Assembly (NCBI GenBank): GCA_026023565.1
Contig: JAPETS010000020.1
Coordinates: 310,001-374,000 of the forward strand
Direction: 5' to 3'
Length of the DNA: 64,000 nucleotides
From: Cirrosporium novae-zelandiae
Lineage: Eukaryota
This document shows, piece by piece, positions 4,901 to 64,000 of the stretch; within the stretch, counting starts at the first letter, position 1; every line of letters begins with the position of its first letter. The position numbers and the translations under genes are program-made. Below the pieces are notes generated by a model. It saw nothing but the letters and a program-made list of their open reading frames with translations. It did not search any database and had not been told where the DNA came from.

Positions 4901-5758
4901 TTCAGAAACAATGTCTCATCCAACGGAACCAAACGTTTGCTTTCTGGATATCATTGGGCCAACCATGCTCCTACAAAAAGGTAACAAATGGTCAGATTTA
5001 ACATGAATAATTTGTTTACAGAATGATTGGATTAAATCCTGGAGCAAGGTGAGACCGAGATTCAAGTGTTAAGCAGAGATAGAACCCACGAAGTCGCACC
5101 GGAGATTACACAATAATCCCATCAAATAAAAGGACAGGAAGACAAAGTGCAATCAAACATCCTTGATGTCATGGTGCACATTGATATGCTGGTTAAAGGG
5201 AAAGGGTCAAGAAATGTTGACAGACATGCAATATGCAGCAGACCCTTCCCCACCTATCTACGGTCATCTGCCATGGATGGATATGCTCCCCCGGAAATAT
5301 AATTCATCTTGATATTACCTTTTCAGCACGGGGACTCTGGAGATAGGTTAGAAAGATCCTCGATCGACATTATGATTAATCAATAACCCCTACAGTTCTC
5401 GGATCAACCCTTTGACGGCATCTTTGTCTTTCCCCACGGCTCATTCAGGTACAGGACGGTATATTTTTTATGGATCCGTCGAGGTCATTTCTCAACTATT
5501 AGAACTAAAGAGTGTCATCCCCATGATTCACGAGGCTGTCTTGCTAAGAGCAAGATAATTTCGATTTTATCTACCCTTGTCAAGGTTACGCTCGTTTTCA
5601 GCAAAAGGATCCCACCGAGAACACATTTCCTATCATTCTTTCATGTCTTTAAGATAGAGGATAGAATTGCAAAACTATTTTTCATTTCTAATCTTTCTTT
5701 AAGCACGGTATTAGCTCTATCACTCATTCACTTTTGATGTTACAATACTAGCAGAATC

Positions 5759-8313
5759 ATGGAAGCTCTTATAATCACGGTTCTTTTCGCGCTCGTCTTT
5801 CTTAGGGTAGAGGCAGATCCAACCTATTCGCCGGGTCGAGCTCCAGCTTTGCCCCTTGCAGTTCGATCTCCCTACACCAGTGCATGGAGTACTACAGCCT
5901 CAAATGGAACTTTGAACAGCAATAGCGTCATGTTTTGGCCTGGTAATGACGTTGGCTGGGAAGGCATAGTCAGTGTCGATGGGATATTCTACGAGTACCT
6001 TGGGATAGGCTCTAAGAATCTACCGAATCTTACGGATTTGACATCTGCAACTCCCTTGACAGTCAGTTATGACTCGCAATATTCAAATTTCACCTTTGCA
6101 GCTGGTCCCGTTACAGTTGAAGCAAGCTTCTTCTCCTCAGTCATTCCCAAGGATCTCTGTAGGACAAGCATTCCGTTGAGCTATTTCACCGCTTCGGTAG
6201 TCTCAACAGACTCTGCGCCACATGACATTCAATTTTATAGCGACGTCAATGCGGCCTGGATAACCTATGAATCCGATGTGGTGGTAGAATGGGATCTCTA
6301 TGAAGGAAGTACGCTTGTCAATGGCACAAATTCGACCGGACAGTCTTCTCCAATCTTTAGCTGGCTCGTTCATTTGCAGCAAGCGTATGAATTTTCCGAG
6401 AACAACCAATTTCCAGGATGGGGAAATTTTACATATTCTTCTACCAAAGGCCAAGCCAAGGCTTTCACATACGAAAGCGGTTTCTCAACAGACCTTCGTT
6501 ATAGGTTTGTGACGTATGAGAACCTACAGAACACCATTGACCAAAGGGCTCGGGGTTCAGGTGATCAAGAACCGGTATTTGCATTTTCCCATGACTTTGG
6601 TTCTGTAACCTCTGCTTCGGTACTATACACGATTGGATCAGTTCAACAACCAATAATTCGGTACTTGACTTGTGGTGGGGTGCTTCCTCTACAACCTTGG
6701 TGGGAATCTTGCTATGGCGATATTTATCAAATGATCAACTATCATTATAACGATTTCGCCAGCAGCGCTGCTTTGGGGGCAGCATTCGAATCGCAACTGA
6801 AGACCGATATCGACAAGTACTACCGTACTGAGGACGTCAAGGTATTCAGTAATAATAGTAATCCCGGTCGTGATCCGGTGTACTACCCCAATGGCACTAA
6901 GGGATTCATCCAGAGCACCGACCAGTTTGGACAAGAATATATCTTCAACCCTAATGATGGATTTGGTTTCTTGGATCCCAATAATTTCAGCGGTATAGCA
7001 ACTCCTGATGTTATGGAAGCGGAGTCCTATTATTCAATTGTCGCTCTATCTACCCGCCAGGTCATGGGCGCTTATGTTCTTGCTGTGCCTCCAGATCTCT
7101 CTTGTTTAAATAATTCGGACCCATCGGTCCCCCTAATGTTTCAGAAAGAAATATCCTCGGATGGAAACGTCAATACCGTCGATGTTATGTATCCAGCCAT
7201 GCCTTTCTTCCTATACGCAAATCCAGAACTTCTCAAGTATAACATGAACCCACTTTACCAGAACCAGGAATCTGGATTTTATCCCAATGGATACTCGATG
7301 CATGATTTAGGATCAAATTTCCCTAACGCAACAGGTCATGTCGAAGGAGACGACGAATATATGCCCGTGGAAGAAAGTGGCAACATGATTTTGATGACGT
7401 ATGCTTACTACAAATTTTCTGGAGACTCGTCCTATCTATCACAACACTATGCCAAGATGAACCAGTGGGCCCAGTATCTTCTAGAGTATAGTTTAATCCC
7501 AAGTAACCAACTTAGCACAGGTCAGTGTTCCTCTTTCCTGTTTCACTAAATTGACTCACAAATACTATAGACGATTTCGCCGGCACACTTGCAAACCAAA
7601 CAAATCTCGCACTAAAAGGTATCGTAGCCATCAAGGCCATGGCAGAGATTGCCAGCATTGTCGGCGCATCCTCAGATGCGGCCAACTTTTCCACAACAGC
7701 TGCAAATTATACTTCTCAATGGGAAGGGTTTGCCATCGATCCATCAGGGAACCACACCCTCCTAGCATACCAGTCCCGCTCCTCCTGGGGTCTATTATAT
7801 AACCTTTACCCGGACAAGCTCCTCAACCTTGGTACAATCCCCCAGTACATCTATGACATGGAAAGCAACTGGTACCCCACGGTATCGCAAATCTTCGGCG
7901 TCCCGCTCGATAGCAGACACTCCTACACGAAATCTGACTGGGAAATGTGGACAGCAGCGGTCTGCTCGCAGAGCACACGGCGTCTAATCATTGATGCGTT
8001 GGCTTACTGGTTGAACGAAACGACCACAAACCTGGCTTTTACGGACCTTTATGACACTATTACTGGAGTTTATCCGGTTAGCGATGGAAGCACGATCGAG
8101 TTTATTGCGAGGCCGGTGCAGGGTGGACAGTTTGCGCTGCTGGCATTGGGTGCTGAGGGAGAGACTGCGACTACGGGGACTGGTAGTAATAGTACGGTTC
8201 AAGTACGAAGGGCGGATGCTTTGCAAAGGAGGACTGCTGCTGCATCACGGCGTGGAAAACCTTTACGAATGCCACCTATCGCTGAGGCAAAAATCGCTGA
8301 TATTAACTCATAA
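5759..8313 (+). CDS. gtaA: Secreted glutaminase GtaA-family protein (DUF5127/DUF4965/DUF1793 architecture), copy 1
   Basis: Signal peptide; PALPLAVRSPY, KEISSDGNVNTVDV, HDLGSNFPNATGH, MPVEESGN, STDDFAG, YNLYPDKLL, TKSDWEMW, ARPVQGG. One intron 7521-7570. Confidence 0.9.
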
Positions 8314-49812: not shown

Positions 49813-51917
49813 TTACCTTCTACGCGTAGAAAGACCATTTGCTCCTTTCGACAGCGCAATCGATGCAAAATGACCTCCAATAGTTGGTCTAGCTCTGAAC
49901 GAATTGTAGTACCCACTCGTAGTGTAATAACGATCACTGAATGGTACCGTGTTCAATCCATTTGCAATGTAAGAATATAGGTTGTTGATTAACTTATCCC
50001 GGGTGGTATCGCCCGCAGCGGCGGCAGCCCACATCTGCCAATCTGTCTTGCCCCATGTGAGGGCACCATCGAGAGGTACGCCGTAAGTGGAGCCAACAGT
50101 TTGATAGAATTCGCTTTGCATATCAAGAGCGGCGGTGTCGAAGGTGTTTAGGTCGAGAAGCTTATCGGGGAAGAGATTGAATACCATGAACCAGGTGGAA
50201 GATCCATATTGAAGAGTGAAATAGGTCTGGGAAGTATCGGTTCCCAGACGCTCGTTGTAAATAGTGTGTGCAAAGGATGTTCCGATAGAAGAGTAGTTTG
50301 ATTGGGAGGTGAGATTTCCATAGGCAGAAAGGCCAACGGCAGCTTTAATTCCAAGATTGGTTTGATTGGCAATGGAACCAATTGCATCGTTGGTGGACAA
50401 CTGCTTTACTGGATACAGGCCATTGTCTACAAGGTAGTTGGCATATTTCAGGAAGAGGGCGCTGTACCCATCAGCCCAGTCGGTGTTTCCGGAGGCTACT
50501 TGATATGCGTAGGCGAGAATGAGAACATTTCCAGTTTCTTCAACAGGCATCTTTTCTTCCTGTGACAAGGGGTGGCCAGTTGCGTTGGGGTAATTGCTGC
50601 CAATATCATGAATGGCATATTCTTCGTCCCATACTCCGGAGGTGACGTATTCTAAAACGGGTTCGAGCAGCAGTCGGATCCATTCTGGATTGAGTAGATA
50701 GAAAATCGGGAATGTCGGGTATATAACATCCACAGTGTTAACATTCCCGTCGCTAGAGATTTCTTTTATAAAAGCCTTGGCGTCACTGGTGGAGAGAGTG
50801 TCGGCTGGAATCGTGAGGTCGATGCCACCTAGAATTTGGCGTGTGGATAGTGCCAATATGGCAGTATAATTGTCCGAAATAGAATCCCCTGCGCTTGATA
50901 TGGTTGAATCGACGCTGTCCGCTTCACTGCTTGCGCTATCGTAGTCATCCAAGAAATGGGCTACAGCAGGAACGGTATTCGCATAAGTTGCTCGATAATA
51001 GCCAGTTTGAGCAGATCCCAGATAATTGACAGCTGCTTCTCTGACATAACCTATGGCAAAGGTGACAGAGGTTGAGTTGTCCAAAGTGCCCAGGTCGTGC
51101 GCAAAGGCAGTCACACCGCCAGCTGTCCAGGACGAATGCCCACTCGACAATGAACCGCCAGAGACAAATTCACTACGAATTGTGGAGGCATCCCCCGAGG
51201 CTGATGTAACACTAGATCCTTCAGTAGCATAAACAGCCTCGCCCCAAAGAGCCATATCATTTGAATTTTGAGAGTATCTGGCTCGCCCATTAGCACTTAG
51301 CTGGTAGGCATAAGTGCTCCCAGAATTCGTGTAGTTCCAAGTGGTACTACTTGATTGACCCGTCCATGTATCATCAATATCAGAGTATATTTGCACTGAC
51401 GGAGAACTGCTGCCCGTGCTGTCGACGGATACAGTAAGATAGGAGAATGGAAGGGACTGGCGAACGTAGTTATTTAGCGAGACGGGGGATAGGAAATCGA
51501 GTGTGATATTTGCGGTTCCAGCCTTCAGGGAGAAGATGGAATGTGTAGATGTATATTCGCCACTGAGAACCGTTGCCGACTGAGTCCCCGACTCTGGATT
51601 GGGTACTCCAAACAGATTATATGTTTCATTATTGACACGAGCAATCACCGACCATGTCAAGTTATTGCCTGCCCAGAATTGGGGTGAGCTTGAGGGTAAG
51701 TTTGAGGCTTGACTACCCGGTAACCATGCTACAAGGATATTAGCTTCTGATAGAGGTCCGATTTGAAAGGGTATATACCTGAGAGGTAAGGATTCCGTAC
51801 TGCCAGAGGATACGAGGGAGGAAGTATGGGGGTGAATGTGGCACCACTGCAGGTCACGGTAAGTAAAGACAATACAGAAAGCGTCCAAACGCCCAGCTGT
51901 TTTGAAAGATCTTTCAT
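49813..51917 (-). CDS. gtaA: Secreted glutaminase GtaA-family protein, copy 2
   Basis: Exon 1 has a signal peptide and PPSYPLAVRNPYLS; intron 51778-51729; then AWLPG, KEISSDGNVNTVDV, HDIGSNYPNATGH, MPVEETGN, FNLFPDKLL, KTDWQMW, RPTIGGHF. Confidence 0.9.
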
Positions 51918-53728
51918 GGTGAATGATAGCGAACGATAGACCCAGAAACAAGAGTCTATGAAAGATGATTGCTAGGGGGAAACAAAAGGAACGGGTCTAG
52001 AGCAGTATTATATGGAAACCAACAATTCTGGCAATATCCAACCGCCTTTCCATTTCTTTTCCTCACCTGGGTCCCTTTGATCGAAATCCATCGCGCTCTA
52101 GCACTGGTTAAGCACGCCATTGCAGTAGCTAGTTGCTCCCAGTATTGAGTGTTTAGTAGTCTTTACACACAGGGGCAGTGGTGTACATTGAAGACTAAAA
52201 TGACGAGAGTAACATTGAGTAGCATGGGGCCTTGAAAGACAGTGGAGCACGAATGGACAATGAGTCGCATCAGTCGCATCAGTCGCATCAGTCGCATGTT
52301 TAATGCAGGACGAGAAAGAGACATGGGAAGGTTGTCAGGATGGGCTGGGTATGATAAGGTTAAGCATATATCTGATCCACTAAGAATAGTATTAATGACC
52401 AACTGTTGATCAGTTGACGCCGGTGAATGTCTCCCAACCTCAATAGAGTCATTTAGATGACTTTTGATATTGCTTGGAGTCTAGGAAGATGTTCACCGGA
52501 TATACACTGCCAAGGTATTAAAGGGGGACTAGTGTCAATATTTCTCCGCATTTCATAGTGAGAAACTGTCATGCCTCGAAATACGCCATAGCAACCGGCC
52601 ATGAGGCAAGTTAAGAGATGGATAGCGGGTGCTCCCGCTGACGGTGCCGCCGATATTGTAGTTGAAATATTTGAGGTTGATGGTTTTGCCAAGAAATGCC
52701 AACAACCACCATCCTGACCATCCCGACTATCCCGACTATCCCGACACCGCTAGACCTGCAAACATTGCAAACTCGAAGACATGGTAACAATGACGAGAAT
52801 CCTTTCAATCATTTCATCATCTTTCCCACAGCACTGTAACCTTTCGTTGATCAATCCTTTAGGAATCCAACAACACATACTACACATTCAGCACACTGCA
52901 GTAGTATCAGGAACATGGCAGCATGTGGCACTATCTGATAGGAGATTGACCTTCTATTCTGTGAGGTACAAAAGCAACGGTGAGTTCAAGGTTTCTTGTA
53001 CAGTCTGTTCACATTCTTCCATCCAATTGCGTGCAAATTCTTCAAGGATTCCTGTTTCATCTAGCATCATCGGGAAATTGCACTCTGTACCTTGCTTTAA
53101 CGTCTAAATATCCCTGCTCTATGATGTGGCTAGCTTCGACCAAGTCACTATCCCCGTCTCTGACTATTGGCACAAAGTTTTATCCTGTTGTGCTATTCAA
53201 AACAATAATTCTAAATTCACTTATTTGTATATGAACTACGTTATCCCAATTTCCATTGCCGACATGAAATGTTTCTCCATCAACCACAGAGGAGCGCCTA
53301 CGGTATTAACTAGGTATTAACTCCTTTGAAGATGACGAATCGGACCAGGTTTCTGGATAGATTCAGTGTTCTCAATAAATTAAGCTCAATCTACAGTACC
53401 CTGGACGCCGTACGCCAAGATCTCACAGGGAAACATGTCTTACACATCGGCGCACAAATCCAAGACAGATGAACATCCAATATAATCTTTACATAGGAGA
53501 TATGGACAAGTTCGTCAACAAAATTACGACGTTTCGTTTGATATACAGCATTAAGCCCTTGAAATACTGTGTAGTTAAACAACTAGGTTCTTAGTGGGTG
53601 CCAAAAACAGCAACGTTTACCAATTTATATCGGGAAGTCTCTACACAAAATGGGCACAGGTATGCTTGTAGAAAGCTAAATACTATTGATCTAGGGCTGT
53701 AGGTTTAGTCGAGAACGTTGAAACCTTT

Positions 53729-57271: not shown

Positions 57272-57349
57272 GGAGAATGTCTCTGGGCTGCCTGGTCATA
57301 GTTCCATCGTGCCCTATACAACAAAATATATATCTCTTTCTTGAAAAAC

Positions 57350-59560
57350 GTAAACATGCAAGAGCATCCATCCCATCCCATCTACCATTCACTCATTTCA
57401 TTTCACTTTCCCCTAGCTATAAACTAAAAGGACTTGATTAATTAACTACCCCTCATCCCATCCCTCATCCCCGTGTTACATAGCATAGCCTAAAACCACT
57501 AGAACCAATCAATGGATCAATCAATCAATCAATCAGTAAATATACGTCTCTCTCTTCTCTCCCCCCTCCTCACCCCCTCTTCTCCCCCAAATCCAAAATC
57601 CTAAATCTTCAAACCAAAAGATCCATATACACCTCCCTACTTACCTACATACAATACAACACGATACAATTACAGCATAAAAAAAAACATACGAACACTC
57701 CTATCCTATTATATTATGTTATATAGATAAATATTACTACTCACTACCAACCTTTTTTCTTTTTTTTTTACTTTTTATATCACTTTTATTTTGGAGAATT
57801 TGGGTTGGATTTGGATGTTTACTTGTTTTTTTGGTTTGGTTCAGTTGGTTGGTTGATAATGCTGAAAAATAATGAAGATGAAAGATATCGATATTTGATG
57901 GGTTGTCATTGTTGTTATTGTTATTACTGTCAGGACTTCAAGACGTGATGTTGTGTTTTAAATATCCAAATCTAATCCAAATCCAATCCCACATCCCACA
58001 TCCCCTTACCAGCTGTCATCCCTTATCACCTATCATCCCCCCCCGCCAAAACCACCATACAAATAACATATCCACCAAAACCCCCAGAAACTCCACGCAT
58101 CCGAAAAAAGGGAAAAAGGGGAAAGGAAAAGATATTCAAATAGATAATTAACTAATAATAATTGGACGACCGAGCGATTCGAAAAAAAAAATGTTTTGTT
58201 TAATAAATTTGTTTTTTGTTTAGTAAGCTATACATAAGCTGTAATGTGTAATTAGTTATGTTAATTATTTTTATGTAGCTATGTAGAATGAGGAAAAAGG
58301 AAAAAAACCTTTTTCTCGTTTTCTCTTTTTCATTTCTTTTCAGGATTAGGAATAATTATAGATACTGGGTCGACTATATCTTGATACGGCATATACTGTA
58401 AAGAGAGAAAGGGCTTAAAACATTATGAACAACTGTCTGCGTAGGAATTTTTTTTTTGTGTAGGGTTGCTTTTGGAGGTGATATACATACATACACATCC
58501 AACCAAACCGTTCAAGCTGTACCTATATACCTATATAACTATATAACTATATAACCATACACGTAACCATACACGTAACCATCAATACCCCCCCCCCCCC
58601 CCCCAAAACTAAATCAAATTAAATCAACTCAAACCCAACAACAACAACAATAAAACCTTATAACATCCCATACCACACTCAACACGTATCTACCTATACC
58701 CAATAACACCTTAAAAAATAACCTACCAACCCACCCGCTTTTAAATTCATTCATTCCAAATGCCTTCCCTTAGGCACACACAACAGCTGGATATACTATG
58801 GATACTATAGATCAGATCAGATCAGGTGACGTGGCCCACGCATCTAGTCTAGCCCGTGCTCGTGTTCGCACCTCCCACCCTCCCTCCCTCCTTATTTATA
58901 TACCTAGGCTAGATATTCACGGCTAGTTTGTTTGTCTGTAGATTTGAATGAATGGGGCAACAAATTTAATGAATGAATTAACACCTTTTTCTTTAGTATG
59001 GGATTGATTGATGCGGAGAAGTGTTGAAGGATAATTTCGGAGGATTGTGTGCTGAGGGTGGGTTGGGGATGGTTATGTGGGAAGAAAGTGCCTTGTTGAG
59101 GGTTGGTATGGTATGTGTTTTGAGGGGGTTGTTAGTCTGGAGTCTAGACTTGATTGGGTTGGACTGGAAGGTGTTGAGTATGTTGGATCTTGGTTCGTAC
59201 GTATAAGTATTTATGTATGTGAGCTGTGGCAAATGTACAAATAAATCAAACGAGACTCGGTTATCTTGGGGTTTGGGGTGTACTGTTTTGGGGGTGTAGG
59301 AGGTTAGTTTTTGGCCGTGATGGAGTTTCGTTAGTTATAGGTATTGTTATAATGCTTCGCGTATATTAAGCCATGGTATGGTAATCAAGTAACCTAGACG
59401 TCTTTTGATAGGGTAGCGGGGTTTGGGGGGTTGTGCGTATGTATCATGATTGTGAATACTGTTTTTTGGGGGGGTTGGAAAGGAAAAGGACTTGGGGTTT
59501 GTTGTTTATCAAGATGAACAACTAGGTTACAATGCATGAATGAGTAAATGAGTGACCAGG
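57350..59560. repeat. Long low-complexity intergenic tract
   Basis: Poly-C/A/T runs, (ATCA)n, (CAA)n, (GATCA)n, (TATAACTA)n; C-rich then G/T-rich strand skew; no credible ORF. Confidence 0.75.
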
Positions 59561-60195
59561 GGTTGATTTCGATTAACATTCGACAGCTGGATTTCTTTTT
59601 GGTCTTTGTTCGGCGGTAATTACGATATGCGCTTAAAGTTAATAAGGCTTGGCGGCTGGCGTTTAGAGCGCCTATACGGGTAGTTATAGTTTAGAGCATA
59701 TCACACTGCATATATTCTGTACACATTGCTTATCCACTCAATCGAATGTGCATTACCACGAAAATTTGGTAGACCAAGTTTATTTTCGAGAGGGTTGAAT
59801 GCAATGCCAAAAGGAATGAGAAAGGGCGCAAAGAGATTAAGAAAGACGTGTTCGAAGTTAGGGCCGTGGTAGTAAAAGAGCGGACGATAGTTATCGGAAT
59901 ATTTTTATTGAATTATTGGAAAATGAATGGGTGTTCCAAGTAAACCAATTGATGAGTGAGTATTTTTATAGCCTGTCGAGTAATATATTTGAGTCTCATG
60001 GGACAATGATTTAAAGGATATCAGCAAAATAAATCTTCAATTGAACATCGAAAGTTTATGGTATCCATCAAGTTGGCTGTACATTGAGAAGTCCATCCGT
60101 GAAACTACATCTAGCATGCATTAGTACTCTTGAATGAAATAAATCGCTAGGCGCGACCGAAAGTTGCTAATACTTCACAATTTGTCGAATTCAGC

Positions 60196-60708
60196 TTACC
60201 GGTCAAATAGTGTGGCATAGCCCTCAACGTTACCAAAAATCGCCAAGCCACTCCCTATAGCTTTACATTCTCTGTAGTCATGTCCTTGGCGTGTAGCGGT
60301 TCCATCTTGCCGGAAAACGTTTCCGACGATCATAATGCCTTTGCCCTCTTCTATGACACAAAGATATGTGCTTCTGCCTTTGCTGCCTTTGTCCGCAAGA
60401 TACTCCACACTAACTGTTATGGGTTCCCAGATTTGGTCGTCATCCACAACACGATGGCCGTCGGCGTTTCGGAGTGAAAATTTATCCAGATCAAGGCGCT
60501 GGTATCTGCTGACGGCATTTTTTATACTCAGCATCGGGTCCCCTGGGGTTACTTTGTAGACGACAGGGGCTTGGTCCGGCCCTAAATGATGGAATTTTGT
60601 TGGCAATGGTGGTGGGAAACTGATTCAAGTAAAGAAGGGGATTATACCCGTCACTGTAACTGGAATCTCATTATGTTGAGGAACAACGGTTCTAGGAAGG
60701 GACTGCAT
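60196..60708 (-). CDS. Ubiquitin/SUMO-like domain protein with a C-terminal HET-s-like two-repeat amyloid motif (148 aa)
   Basis: Exon 1 60708-60648 (MQSLPRTVVPQHNEIPVTVT), intron 60647-60582 (GTATAA..TTTAG), exon 2 60581-60196. N-part resembles a SUMO-type beta-grasp; C-part aligns without gaps to HET-s repeats R1 and R2 and the terminal GNxxGxxxFWD tail. Confidence 0.7.
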
Positions 60709-61841
60709 ATTTTCAAGTCTCGTCCAGTGATAATTGAAAATGATAATAAGTTGATTTGTGGTTCATGAAGGGGTTCGTGGGTTAAAAAGGTAGAAAATCG
60801 AATGGTTCGTTCACGGCTCGTGAAGGTCAGTAAGAATATCTATAATTTTAATAAAATGAACTCCCTACAAGGTATATCGTTAGACAGTACTAATGGAGAT
60901 AGTGTTATGATATTGAAAAACCGTCATGCTTACCGAGATCCTGAAGCCACTATGCAGTGTTGGTGGGTCATATCCGTAGCTAACTGGGTTATAATTAACT
61001 AAATGCCTGTGGATTAACGTTAATGTTGTCTGCATAATTTTTTTTCTTCTGGTCACTTTTTCTGTATCTGTTTTTCCCCGAATGGCTTCCACGGAAGCAT
61101 GGGCGTCCCCTGCTCCAACCACCCAGGTTGGATGGAAGATCAAATGAGGAGGTGTGAACGTTCTTGTATGAGATTATGCAGGTATCCTTGGTAGTAAACC
61201 AGAAAAGGACCTTCAAGGAATGAATCGGCAGATGATAAGGATGCTATTGTCGGTCATATTCGAATAAGGGGAAAGGGCTTGGTTAATCTATCCCAAGCCG
61301 AGCAAGTTAGGGATTCACGAGATAAGCTATGCTGCAAGTATACTGTATATGCTGCAAGTACGAGCAGAGATGAACATGGCAAATATGTGGCAGTACATGT
61401 AGTTTGATGGTTTGATACCAAAGTACTGTCTAGTGGATGCTGTGGAACTTGATGTAAATCATCGCAGGAAGATTGTTCTTGGCTGATCTCAGGTAGGCAG
61501 TAGGGGTTAATCACAACCAAACGTTGAGGCTGAGAGGCTGATTGGCGACTCATCTGCAGACTAGGCCGCCCCCCCATTTCAACACACATCACACATCCTT
61601 CATCAACATTTTCCACAAGCACAATCAAATATTTCGTGCGTTTCCCTACTCTCCCAAGGCTACCCTGTCCAATAGTTGGCAATTGAGCAGATATCACGAT
61701 TTCTTTCTTCCTTCCTTATCCTCCCCCCTTTGGAGATTCTGTTTTGCTAACTTGACCTGACTTCAAGCTCCTTTTGCCTTCTCGTCGTCGCCCATACCTA
61801 ACTAGCCTTTTGATTTTTACCGACCTCCATCTACTCACCTG

Positions 61842-62700
61842 ATGTTTGATCTGGACCTGATGAGGCTCTTCGCAAATGCTGCCCAATCTACCGATTATAC
61901 CTTCCATGTCACCAAAACCATCACAAAATTGTCTCGTAATATGCAGGATAGTTGAGTGACGCTTGATACACATAAGATGGATTCAAAGGCTCATGGGGCT
62001 TGCTTTGAGGATTTGCTGTAATGAATGCTTGCCAATACCAAGTGTAGATGCTGCTCTATGCTTACCAAGGCAGAACCGTTACCGGAAACCATTGATAAGC
62101 TGAAAGCTAATGCTTCCGAGAGATCCATTAAAAGGTACCCATATGTTTGGTTCAAGTACAAGGAGAAGATCTTACTCGGACTATTGGCGAGTTTAGAGGA
62201 GCAAAAAGTACATAACAATAGGGCGCATGCAGGAAGCCAATGCTATATCCATAAGCCATACGGGACCAACTGGCAAAATCTGTGGGGCCAGCCCAGAACC
62301 ATCAAATATGACATGTCAAGATATCCATCCTTAGAGATAACTCCCGTGCTTCAGCTGGCTCCTCATAAGTTTGACGTTGTTTTGATGCCACCATCCACGC
62401 TACTAGTGAGTCTCGGAACATTGCATCTCGACACGACAAGACATTCTTCAAGCCGTCCACATTGCTAGTGAGTCCTGCAATTCTTTGCCAACAACTTGAA
62501 TAGGAGCCTAGAATTTTCAAGCAGCTTGTGGGTCTTAAGATGCCCTGGCACCAGAACTTCAGCACGACTTTCGGCGTATCCGAGTCCTTGGTGATTCTAG
62601 AGACGTAGACAGTGATATTAGAGGTTTAGGTGTAGCAATCACAGCAGGACACCCCTACGAAGATGCACTAGCAGCAAGATACTCTCAACAGGACTAGTAG
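61842..62700 (+). pseudogene. Decayed SesA/HeLo-like N-terminal domain gene with C-terminal amyloid-motif-like repeats
   Basis: Frame from ATG 61842 reads MFDLDLMRLFANAAQSTDYTFHVTKTITKL...SIKRYPYVWFKYKEKILLGLLASLEEQK, with stops at 61953, 62019 and 62022. Bases 62560-62694 read QHDFRRIRVLGDSRDVDSDI...GHPYEDALAARYSQQD. Confidence 0.5.
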
Positions 62701-64000
62701 TGTCGATACTAATTTTGTTCTCAAGCTCATCTAGGAAGGATCATAAAAGGACGATCATGTGCAGTTCCCCGTGTGAAGAATAACATTGTGTCAGATGAAA
62801 TATTCCCTAGCACAGGTGGTGCATTGGGGTTGGGGGATTTCATGCAGAATATAATAGTTTCAAGTACCTTTGGTCGATACTTGACATGATGACTGCCTTA
62901 TTTCCTATTGAAAGATTCATAGGATTAAAACTAACCTTGGGGAGTATTTCACCTGACACCATAATACATGTGTTAATGATACTTGGTATAGTAACCCCTA
63001 TGAAATATGAGATAGCTTTGTTTCGAATGGTCGCGATTGCTACTTACCCAACTGTAATTCAGTTTTGGATGGGGTTCAGATGCGGGTGCCAGACAACGGA
63101 ATTGAGATATCCCGTGTACAAAAATTAAAAGGCAGGAGTAGATCTATGCCTTTCTGATGTCCGAGGGACGTCTGGATCCTCGGAAGTTCTCTGAGCACAG
63201 GTTCTGGGCACGATTTGGGAACCATGATGCAGTCCCTAGTCAAAATTTCGAACCTCTGAGTGAGGCCCTAGAACTTTGCGGGGGCATAAATCCAATTCTA
63301 TCCCTCGTAAAAGAAGTCTGCAGCCTGCCTTCCACCTGTGACTGTGGATATATTTCCTGGTTCACAGGAATTATGCAATGCATACTTCTCTGTACATGAT
63401 TGGATGGAACCGTGGCGCCATGCATTTCGGCAACAAGAACGAGAGAGCCATGCATTGGTTGTGACCCGGGAATTTCTTTCGATGACTTTGCTTATTCCGG
63501 GCGCGGACGACGTGAAGTTAACAGCATTGCATTCCAGCCCCAAAGGGATAAATGAAGCTTAGCGATGGGCAAGTATTTCGTCGGCCATCACAATTACGAC
63601 TACATCCATCTTTATTGAAAACTTTAACCTTGCAAAGGGAAACAATAGTCTTTTACTGTTATACAAGACCCTACGGCGTCATAAGGTCTTCTTGATATCA
63701 TCGACCAACTTTTCTGCATGTGCGTCTGCTGCAATCACAAGTATCTGACTTCGCCCAGAGATCGAGATGAGAAAACTTACATGTAGCACCCTGTATCTTC
63801 CCTGGTCGATCAAAAGTGAAAGAGTTGGTAGCTATAACTTGAAGACTTGTAAGGCCGAAGACTTAGGCTTCGGAGTCCATGGTGACATACCCGGAGGTCG
63901 ATAATCCCATCACACCCAGTAGGACACGTAAGATGAGAAATTGAGCTTATAAGCCTGAGGTTCACTCATATTCTAGACCGCAAAATCATAGGAACTGACC

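Follow-up and report, generated by a model that had tools for sequence, protein, structure and literature searches.

A predicted two-exon gene of the ascomycete Cirrosporium novae-zelandiae, lying within the 64-kb stretch of DNA that was analysed as a whole (the window), is read here, with a probability of roughly 0.4, as encoding a real orphan ubiquitin-like (Ubl) protein with an ordinary beta-hairpin tail. The product would be a small, lineage-restricted protein in which a non-conjugatable beta-grasp head is followed by a glycine-punctuated, strongly hydrophobic tail of about 60 residues. This tail would consist of a pair of beta-hairpin units, ordinary beta structure that may pack on the head or pair with a second copy to give a small Ubl-type binding module, and its likeness to HET-s and to the HRAM motifs would be a loose pattern match, implying no membership. 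The gene model, the short internal repeat and the lack both of relatives and of an NLR in the window are shown; the beta-grasp fold, suggested by a language-model structure of low confidence, and the way the tail behaves are inferred.

Gene model and coding signal

The gene lies on the reverse strand near one end of the window (Table 1). A previous reading of the DNA, made from the sequence only, had restored a 66-nt intron to obtain a product of 148 aa, and this reconstruction held, the proposed protein being letter-for-letter identical to a database protein (P0003) that stands in NCBI as [quoted passage not shown]. Because the spliced product and P0003 are identical, the public annotation, an automatic model, contains the predicted intron. 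In the protein index P0003 is a single member, from one contig of 599,686 bp. The exon 1 product, MQSLPRTVVPQHNEIPVTVT, takes in the proposed first beta-strand; left unspliced, the exon 1 frame reaches a stop after 31 codons.

Table 1. Coordinates, within the window, of the two-exon gene, the parts of its product and the long open frames around it
Feature	Position	Strand	Description
ATG	60708-60706	(-)	start of the two-exon gene
Exon 1	60648..60708	(-)	61 nt, ends in the first base of Gly21; encodes MQSLPRTVVPQHNEIPVTVT
Predicted intron	60582..60647	(-)	66 nt, GT..AG, GTATAAT...TTTAG
Exon 2, coding part	60199..60581	(-)	residues 21-148
Stop codon TAA	60196-60198	(-)	
Probable beta-grasp (ubiquitin-like) head	60388..60669, intron inside	(-)	residues ~14-85; from ESM Atlas structural neighbours
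Unit 1	60316..60378	(-)	residues 89-109, GRSTYLCVIEEGKGIMIVGNV; Gly107 = HRAM position 19
Linker	60289..60315	(-)	residues 110-118, FRQDGTATR, 9 aa, one Gly
Unit 2	60226..60288	(-)	residues 119-139, QGHDYRECKAIGSGLAIFGNV; Gly137 = HRAM position 19, His121 = position 3
C-terminal tail	60199..60225	(-)	residues 140-148, EGYATLFDR, with Gly, Tyr and Phe
Stop-to-stop frame	60199-60624	(-)	
Stop-to-stop frame	62025-62465	(+)	
Stop-to-stop frame	61257-61715	(-)	

The two-exon model is probably a real gene. It is set against a doubtful alternative in which the gene is spurious, a chance or decaying frame in a gene-poor stretch that was made into two exons by an ab initio predictor, and in which the HRAM and Ubl likenesses would be meaningless. 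The splice signals point towards this alternative, the donor GTATAAT having A, not G, at +5 and no CTRAY being found towards the acceptor in the last 40 nt of the predicted intron. The donor comparison is partly circular, because the four other likely introns in which G stands at +5 had been chosen by eye; the sole intron of the window that was fixed objectively is that at 7521-7570 (50 nt, donor GTCAGT), located in the first copy of the glutaminase gene GtaA by aligning it with the second copy, which has no intron. These two paralogous GtaA genes (DUF4964/DUF5127/GtaA_6_Hairpin) occupy positions 5738-8310 (+) and 49816-51996 (-).

The surroundings of the gene are also compatible with a spurious frame. 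No Pfam family was found in the 47 other ORFs of at least 55 aa between 57.1 and 63.7 kb. When the 6.7 kb around the gene were simulated with a Markov model, 155 of 1000 runs produced an open frame of at least 142 codons, and the length of the frame is thus by itself weak proof of a gene. Three stop-to-stop frames lie in the same stretch (57300-64000), however, with lengths of 142, 147 and 153 codons, and three frames of at least 142 codons were matched in only 1 of 1000 simulations; the stretch is therefore not random sequence, which tells against a spurious origin. The two frames neighbouring the candidate have negative codon scores (-0.03 and -0.08), and the RIP indices of the gene flanks are unremarkable.

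The coding signal of exon 2 can be cited on both sides. Its codon log-odds score of +0.109 bits per codon falls at the low end of the range of the Pfam-supported reference ORFs (0.071-0.255), which are the same 13 window ORFs on which the codon table was trained, and it is exceeded by two of the 15 unannotated window ORFs, whose scores run from -0.155 to +0.183 bits per codon. This modest position suits a spurious frame. On the other side stand the phasing of GC over codon positions 1, 2 and 3 (0.60, 0.39 and 0.48) and the rise of local GC in the gene (0.476, against 0.406 and 0.429 in the flanks). Taken with the coding score, the phasing and the GC rise describe a protein-like gene, as expected if the orphan protein is real and its tail ordinary. 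A further point against a spurious gene is that the hairpin across the splice junction (IPVTVTG / PDQAPVVYKV) reads as a continuous beta1-turn-beta2.

The probable ubiquitin-like head

The head of about 85 residues probably folds as a beta-grasp, a lead of moderate weight that comes from structure prediction. The ESM Atlas model of the exact protein (pLDDT 0.57, pTM 0.41) has beta-grasp families in all ten of its nearest clusters, including ubiquitin, SUMO2-like, Rad60-SLD/SUMO and ThiS/MoaD, with TM scores of 0.46-0.57 by the query and of 0.74 by the SUMO2-like entry. Such a set of neighbours would be unusual for a random frame and argues against a spurious gene. A single-sequence AF2 model was unusable (pLDDT 32.5); the element order that it predicts at low confidence, beta-beta-helix, agrees with a beta-grasp.

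Profile and sequence searches gave no counterpart to this structural signal. No Pfam family at all matched the protein at E<=10, and hence neither HET-s_218-289 nor ubiquitin did, the latter result extending to Rad60-SLD and the other Ubl families. No NCBIfam family was found for the 148-aa protein, and a phmmer search of the PDB matched no Ubl chain. The SUMO-like N-terminal domain proposed from the sequence alone was supported in outline, its fold being probable from the ten of ten beta-grasp neighbours of a low-confidence Atlas model, and found no sequence-profile match.

The head also lacks a C-terminal Gly-Gly, as had been claimed and as the sequence bears out, which makes conjugation in the usual way impossible. 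Within the ubiquitin/SUMO/ThiS beta-grasp superfamily, the likeness lies in the Atlas neighbours of residues ~1-88 and in the element order, whereas the candidate differs from these proteins by having no profile match, no Gly-Gly and a tail of 60 aa after the head.

The C-terminal tail and the HRAM template

The tail was compared with the HRAM rules, and numbered, according to Daskalov, Dyrka and Saupe (2015; PMC4518210). In that scheme a unit measures about 21 aa and has an invariant Gly at position 19, and each effector carries two units. Core positions 5, 8, 10, 16 and 18 are hydrophobic, the strands alternate polar and hydrophobic residues, the loops span 6-18 aa, and a short segment with aromatic residues and glycine follows the second repeat (PMC4518210).

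Judged by its sequence, the tail loosely resembles the HET-s prion motif. Both units have Gly at position 19 and Asn at position 20 (2/2 in each case) as well as Gly at arch position 12, and both are hydrophobic at positions 17 and 21, a pairing described in PMC4518210. In unit 2 the core is hydrophobic at five of five positions (Y, C, A, A, F), provided that Tyr, Cys and Ala are taken as hydrophobic, polar Arg-Glu stands at arch 1 and G-S-G at arch 2, and position 3 is occupied, in this unit only, by His, a large polar residue as in HRAM3. In unit 1 the core is hydrophobic at four of five positions, with Glu at position 10, and L, C and I fill positions 6, 7 and 9, where the template wants polar residues. 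Unit 2 fits the HRAM rules well, and unit 1 does so in its second half only. The 9-aa linker lies within the 6-18 aa range, and the 9 residues from the end of unit 2 to the C-terminus of the protein form an aromatic/glycine tail of the expected kind.

On these features rests a second alternative, possible though doubtful, in which the protein acts in amyloid signalling. The two units would be the r1 and r2 rungs of a HET-s-type beta-solenoid templated by the r0 of an NLR encoded outside the window, and the payload assembled by the fibril would be a beta-grasp domain in place of the pore-forming HeLo. It is unlikely, in particular, that an NLR beyond the window templates the HRAM-like tail and that the fibril formed in this way presents its beta-grasp domains in an array, serving as scaffold, decoy or platform for recruitment. 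In favour of amyloid signalling speak the paired Gly19 and Asn20, the cores of 4/5 and 5/5, Gly12, the hydrophobic 17/21 positions, the His of unit 2, the linker, the aromatic/glycine segment and the C-terminal placement of the whole. The same traits weigh against an ordinary tail, since unit 2 agrees with the template at almost all positions, the two units have G12, G14, I17, G19, N20 and V21 in common together with the 17/21 pairing, and the linker and terminal segment are as in HRAM proteins. A two-unit element that is unable to close on itself, moreover, has the look of a stacking motif.

Other positions depart from the template. Position 15 holds Ile and Leu, not the preferred R/K, and opposite charges are found at none of the six positions 4, 6, 7, 11, 12 and 13 (T/D, L/R, C/E, E/I, G/G, K/S); the basic residue and the charge pairing are both statistical tendencies and not absolutes (PMC4518210). 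Positions 15-18 are wholly hydrophobic in both units, and so are positions 5-9 of unit 1, whose first half (L, C and I at 6, 7 and 9, E at 10) breaks the expected alternation. The tail contains 17% Gly, and its mean hydropathy places it on the folded side of the Uversky line. These hydrophobic runs, the 0/6 charge pairs, the missing basic residue and the folded-side hydropathy favour an ordinary beta-hairpin tail, and the broken alternation, position 15 and the charge positions count against the amyloid alternative.

Profile searches agree with an ordinary tail. The sequence-only reading had named the lack of a HET-s profile match among the findings that would speak against it, and PF11558 indeed gave no match to the protein at E<=10 in Pfam. 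Its proposal of a HET-s-type HRAM motif is retained in part: a portion of the HRAM template is present, and against it stand the absent profile match and the deviating first half of unit 1. PF11558 matches only 38 of 155 HRAM proteins (PMC4518210). No HET-s chain appeared among the PDB matches of the tail at E<=10, and the PDB does contain HET-s fibril entries, such as 2KJ3 (cited in PMC4518210).

The best PDB matches of the tail were instead to beta-hairpins of globular enzymes, namely a ferredoxin-NADP reductase (E 1.3) and GdmN (E 0.9). These matches are at chance level and kinship with either enzyme was rejected, but the kind of structure hit, together with the lack of a Pfam or NCBIfam family and of a HET-s chain, is what an ordinary tail would give. 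The reductase match aligns STYLCVIEEGKGIMIVGNV (60316-60390 (-), residues 85-109) with the final strands of the barrel that binds FAD in PDB 8hfq_m (E 1.3) and includes five consecutive identical residues; the protein bears no other sign of a reductase. An Atlas model of residues 86-148 alone had no feature match and only neighbours at TM <=0.35. The reading as an ordinary tail suffers from a vague mechanism and from the lack of positive structural support in the models (AF2 pLDDT 32.5; Atlas tail TM <=0.35).

The repeat itself is shorter than had been described. Both units end in G-x-G, four hydrophobic residues and G-N-V, with a spacing of 30 residues, and they are identical at 7 of 21 positions (Y5, G12, G14, I17, G19, N20, V21). 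The match of the complete 21-mers (BLOSUM62 score 19) was equalled in 1506 of 5000 shuffles and is not significant, a result that goes against the amyloid alternative, whereas that of the last 10 residues (GKGIMIVGNV / GSGLAIFGNV; score 32) was equalled in 6 of 3000 shuffles, with a window length chosen post hoc. Other lengths gave 97 (8 residues), 90 (12 residues) and 696 (15 residues) of 3000 shuffles, and the best local self-match, free of any window, was equalled in 39 of 1500. The two C-terminal pseudo-repeats claimed previously therefore persist as two units separated by a linker of 9-10 aa, with a repeat of some 10 residues, not 21, that is weaker than described. The "identical 17-aa spacing" of the repeats to the following G-N, also put forward, is a product of the points at which the strings were cut and adds no independent evidence.

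The frequency with which such a pattern arises by chance was estimated with a loose pattern, which asks twice for Gly19 with at least 4/5 hydrophobic core positions, the two glycines being separated by 27-39 residues and the second one lying 8-20 residues from the C-terminus, and with a strict one, which adds [ND] after both glycines. Among 200000 random C-termini of window-like composition, 2551 carried the loose and 30 the strict pattern, and shuffling the last 80 residues of the protein itself gave 5013 and 39 of 200000, respectively. The window ORFs of at least 60 aa include 8 of 377 with the loose pattern and 1 of 377 with the strict one, the latter being the candidate, which passes by construction. 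These rates are used by both readings of the tail: the ease with which both patterns arise supports an ordinary tail, and the rarity of the strict pattern (30/200000) supports an HRAM. At this rate a proteome of 10000 proteins would hold about 1.5 chance look-alikes, which weakens the case for amyloid signalling; true HRAM proteins, counted species by species, are of the same order as these one to two (PMC4518210, Table 1). The extra identities between units 1 and 2 raise the odds of a real repeat, and a real hairpin repeat need not be an HRAM.

Known systems, neighbourhood and relatives

Among the nearest known systems are the HET-S/HET-s prion-forming domain and HRAM1-5 (PMC4518210). Like these, the candidate has two units of about 21 residues at its extreme C-terminus, Gly19 followed by Asn, a mostly hydrophobic core, Gly12, a 9-aa linker and an aromatic/glycine tail. 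Unlike them, it has a head that is not HeLo, HeLo-like or sesA, no match to PF11558, neither a basic position 15 nor charge pairs, a first half of unit 1 that is continuously hydrophobic, no nearby NLR in the window and no relatives.

HRAM-type motifs also occur on effectors that do not form pores. According to Wojciechowski et al. (2022; PMC9815663), the HRAM3-like motif "NLR12" is found as a single unit on PNP_UDP effectors, and the His at position 3 of unit 2 in the candidate is the HRAM3 hallmark. The NLR12 proteins described there have one unit and an enzymatic PNP_UDP domain and are encoded beside NLR genes, whereas the candidate carries a pair of units, lacks an enzyme domain and has no NLR beside it in the window. 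The known carriers of HRAMs are HeLo, HeLo-like, sesA and, with a single HRAM3-like unit, PNP_UDP proteins, a list that argues against a Ubl carrier. Another motif from that paper, PUASM (FxGxGxQxxGxGxF), was considered and rejected: both units of the candidate have its G-x-G-4x-G spacing, but neither its Gln nor its last Gly nor its flanking Phe.

A link between the beta-grasp fold and NLRs exists in the Crinkler N-terminal domain. In one of the Atlas neighbour clusters (row 4), 41% of the members carry PF20147, the Crinkler domain, which belongs to the ubiquitin (beta-grasp) clan and which PMC9815663 reports at the N-termini of fungal NLR architectures, a point in favour of amyloid signalling by a Ubl protein. 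The candidate itself has no match to PF20147 at E<=10, and what follows a Crinkler head is an effector or toxin domain rather than a short tail of repeats. In the literature searched, which includes PMC9815663 in part, a paper whose supplements may bear on the point, no case was found of an amyloid signalling motif combined with a ubiquitin-like domain; the word "ubiquitin" was not found in the accessible portions of PMC12261475 and PMC12881547.

If the tail were a true HRAM, fungal NLR-amyloid signalling would extend past HeLo-family executioners and PNP_UDP enzymes to a ubiquitin-fold module, and amyloid-driven clustering would be suggested as a general recruitment device, like ASC specks. 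Among HRAM carriers the protein would be the first that neither forms pores nor acts as an enzyme, in a fungal class unsurveyed for such systems, and its very small size would make it a tractable test protein. If the tail is not an HRAM, the case shows the ease with which a loose HRAM template is matched. With one to two strict look-alikes per proteome by chance, motif calls made by eye on orphan proteins need a partner NLR or a profile match.

No such partner was seen in the window. The neighbouring NLR with a matching R0 that had been suggested was not found within the 64 kb, of which 60 kb lie on one side of the gene and only 3.3 kb on the other. NACHT, NB-ARC, HeLo and HET domains were not found in the 27 of 63 window ORFs of at least 120 aa that were scanned, which include 15 of the 16 ORFs of at least 250 aa, the omitted one overlapping a sugar transporter in another frame. 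The scanned ORFs encode glutaminases, MFS and sugar transporters, a multicopper oxidase, GH31 and TauD proteins and others. A tblastn search of the tail against the window for an r0-like motif yielded nothing above noise, the best match being a 51-aa frame at E 0.82. The missing partner, like the missing profile and homologue, counts against amyloid signalling; an adjacent NLR is present for 98 of 155 HRAM proteins and absent for 57 of 155 (PMC4518210). Because only 38/155 HRAM proteins match PF11558 and 98/155 have an adjacent NLR, the negative Pfam result and the missing NLR neighbour are weak evidence.

The search for Ubl+HRAM homologues, proposed along with the motif, returned none among 1.84 billion representatives: phmmer found the protein itself and seven false matches, and no true homologue. 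A word-indexed search of an index of 5.8 billion clusters recovered, at similar lengths, the protein itself alone. Among the longer proteins of that index, where 12 candidates had words in common with residues 86-148, none matched this tail at E<=10; as a 21-residue r0 is unable to reach E<=10 at such a database size, the absence of longer matches is weak evidence. The lack of relatives in both collections is what a spurious gene predicts. Cirrosporium novae-zelandiae, however, belongs to the Xylobotryomycetes, a little sequenced class, so that true genes may also be without relatives.

The seven additional phmmer matches (P0004-P0010) were rejected as homologues because they are summed weak matches to repeats. 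Six of them, of 593-3363 aa, bear surface or protease domains of bacterial type; P0010 (414 aa), the seventh, was matched through its own internal repeat. These mostly long proteins carry Calx-beta, cadherin-like, Peptidase_S8 or trypsin domains, and their phmmer E-values, summed over internal repeats, go down to 4e-9 for the 148-aa query, a case in which whole-sequence E-values mislead on repeat proteins.
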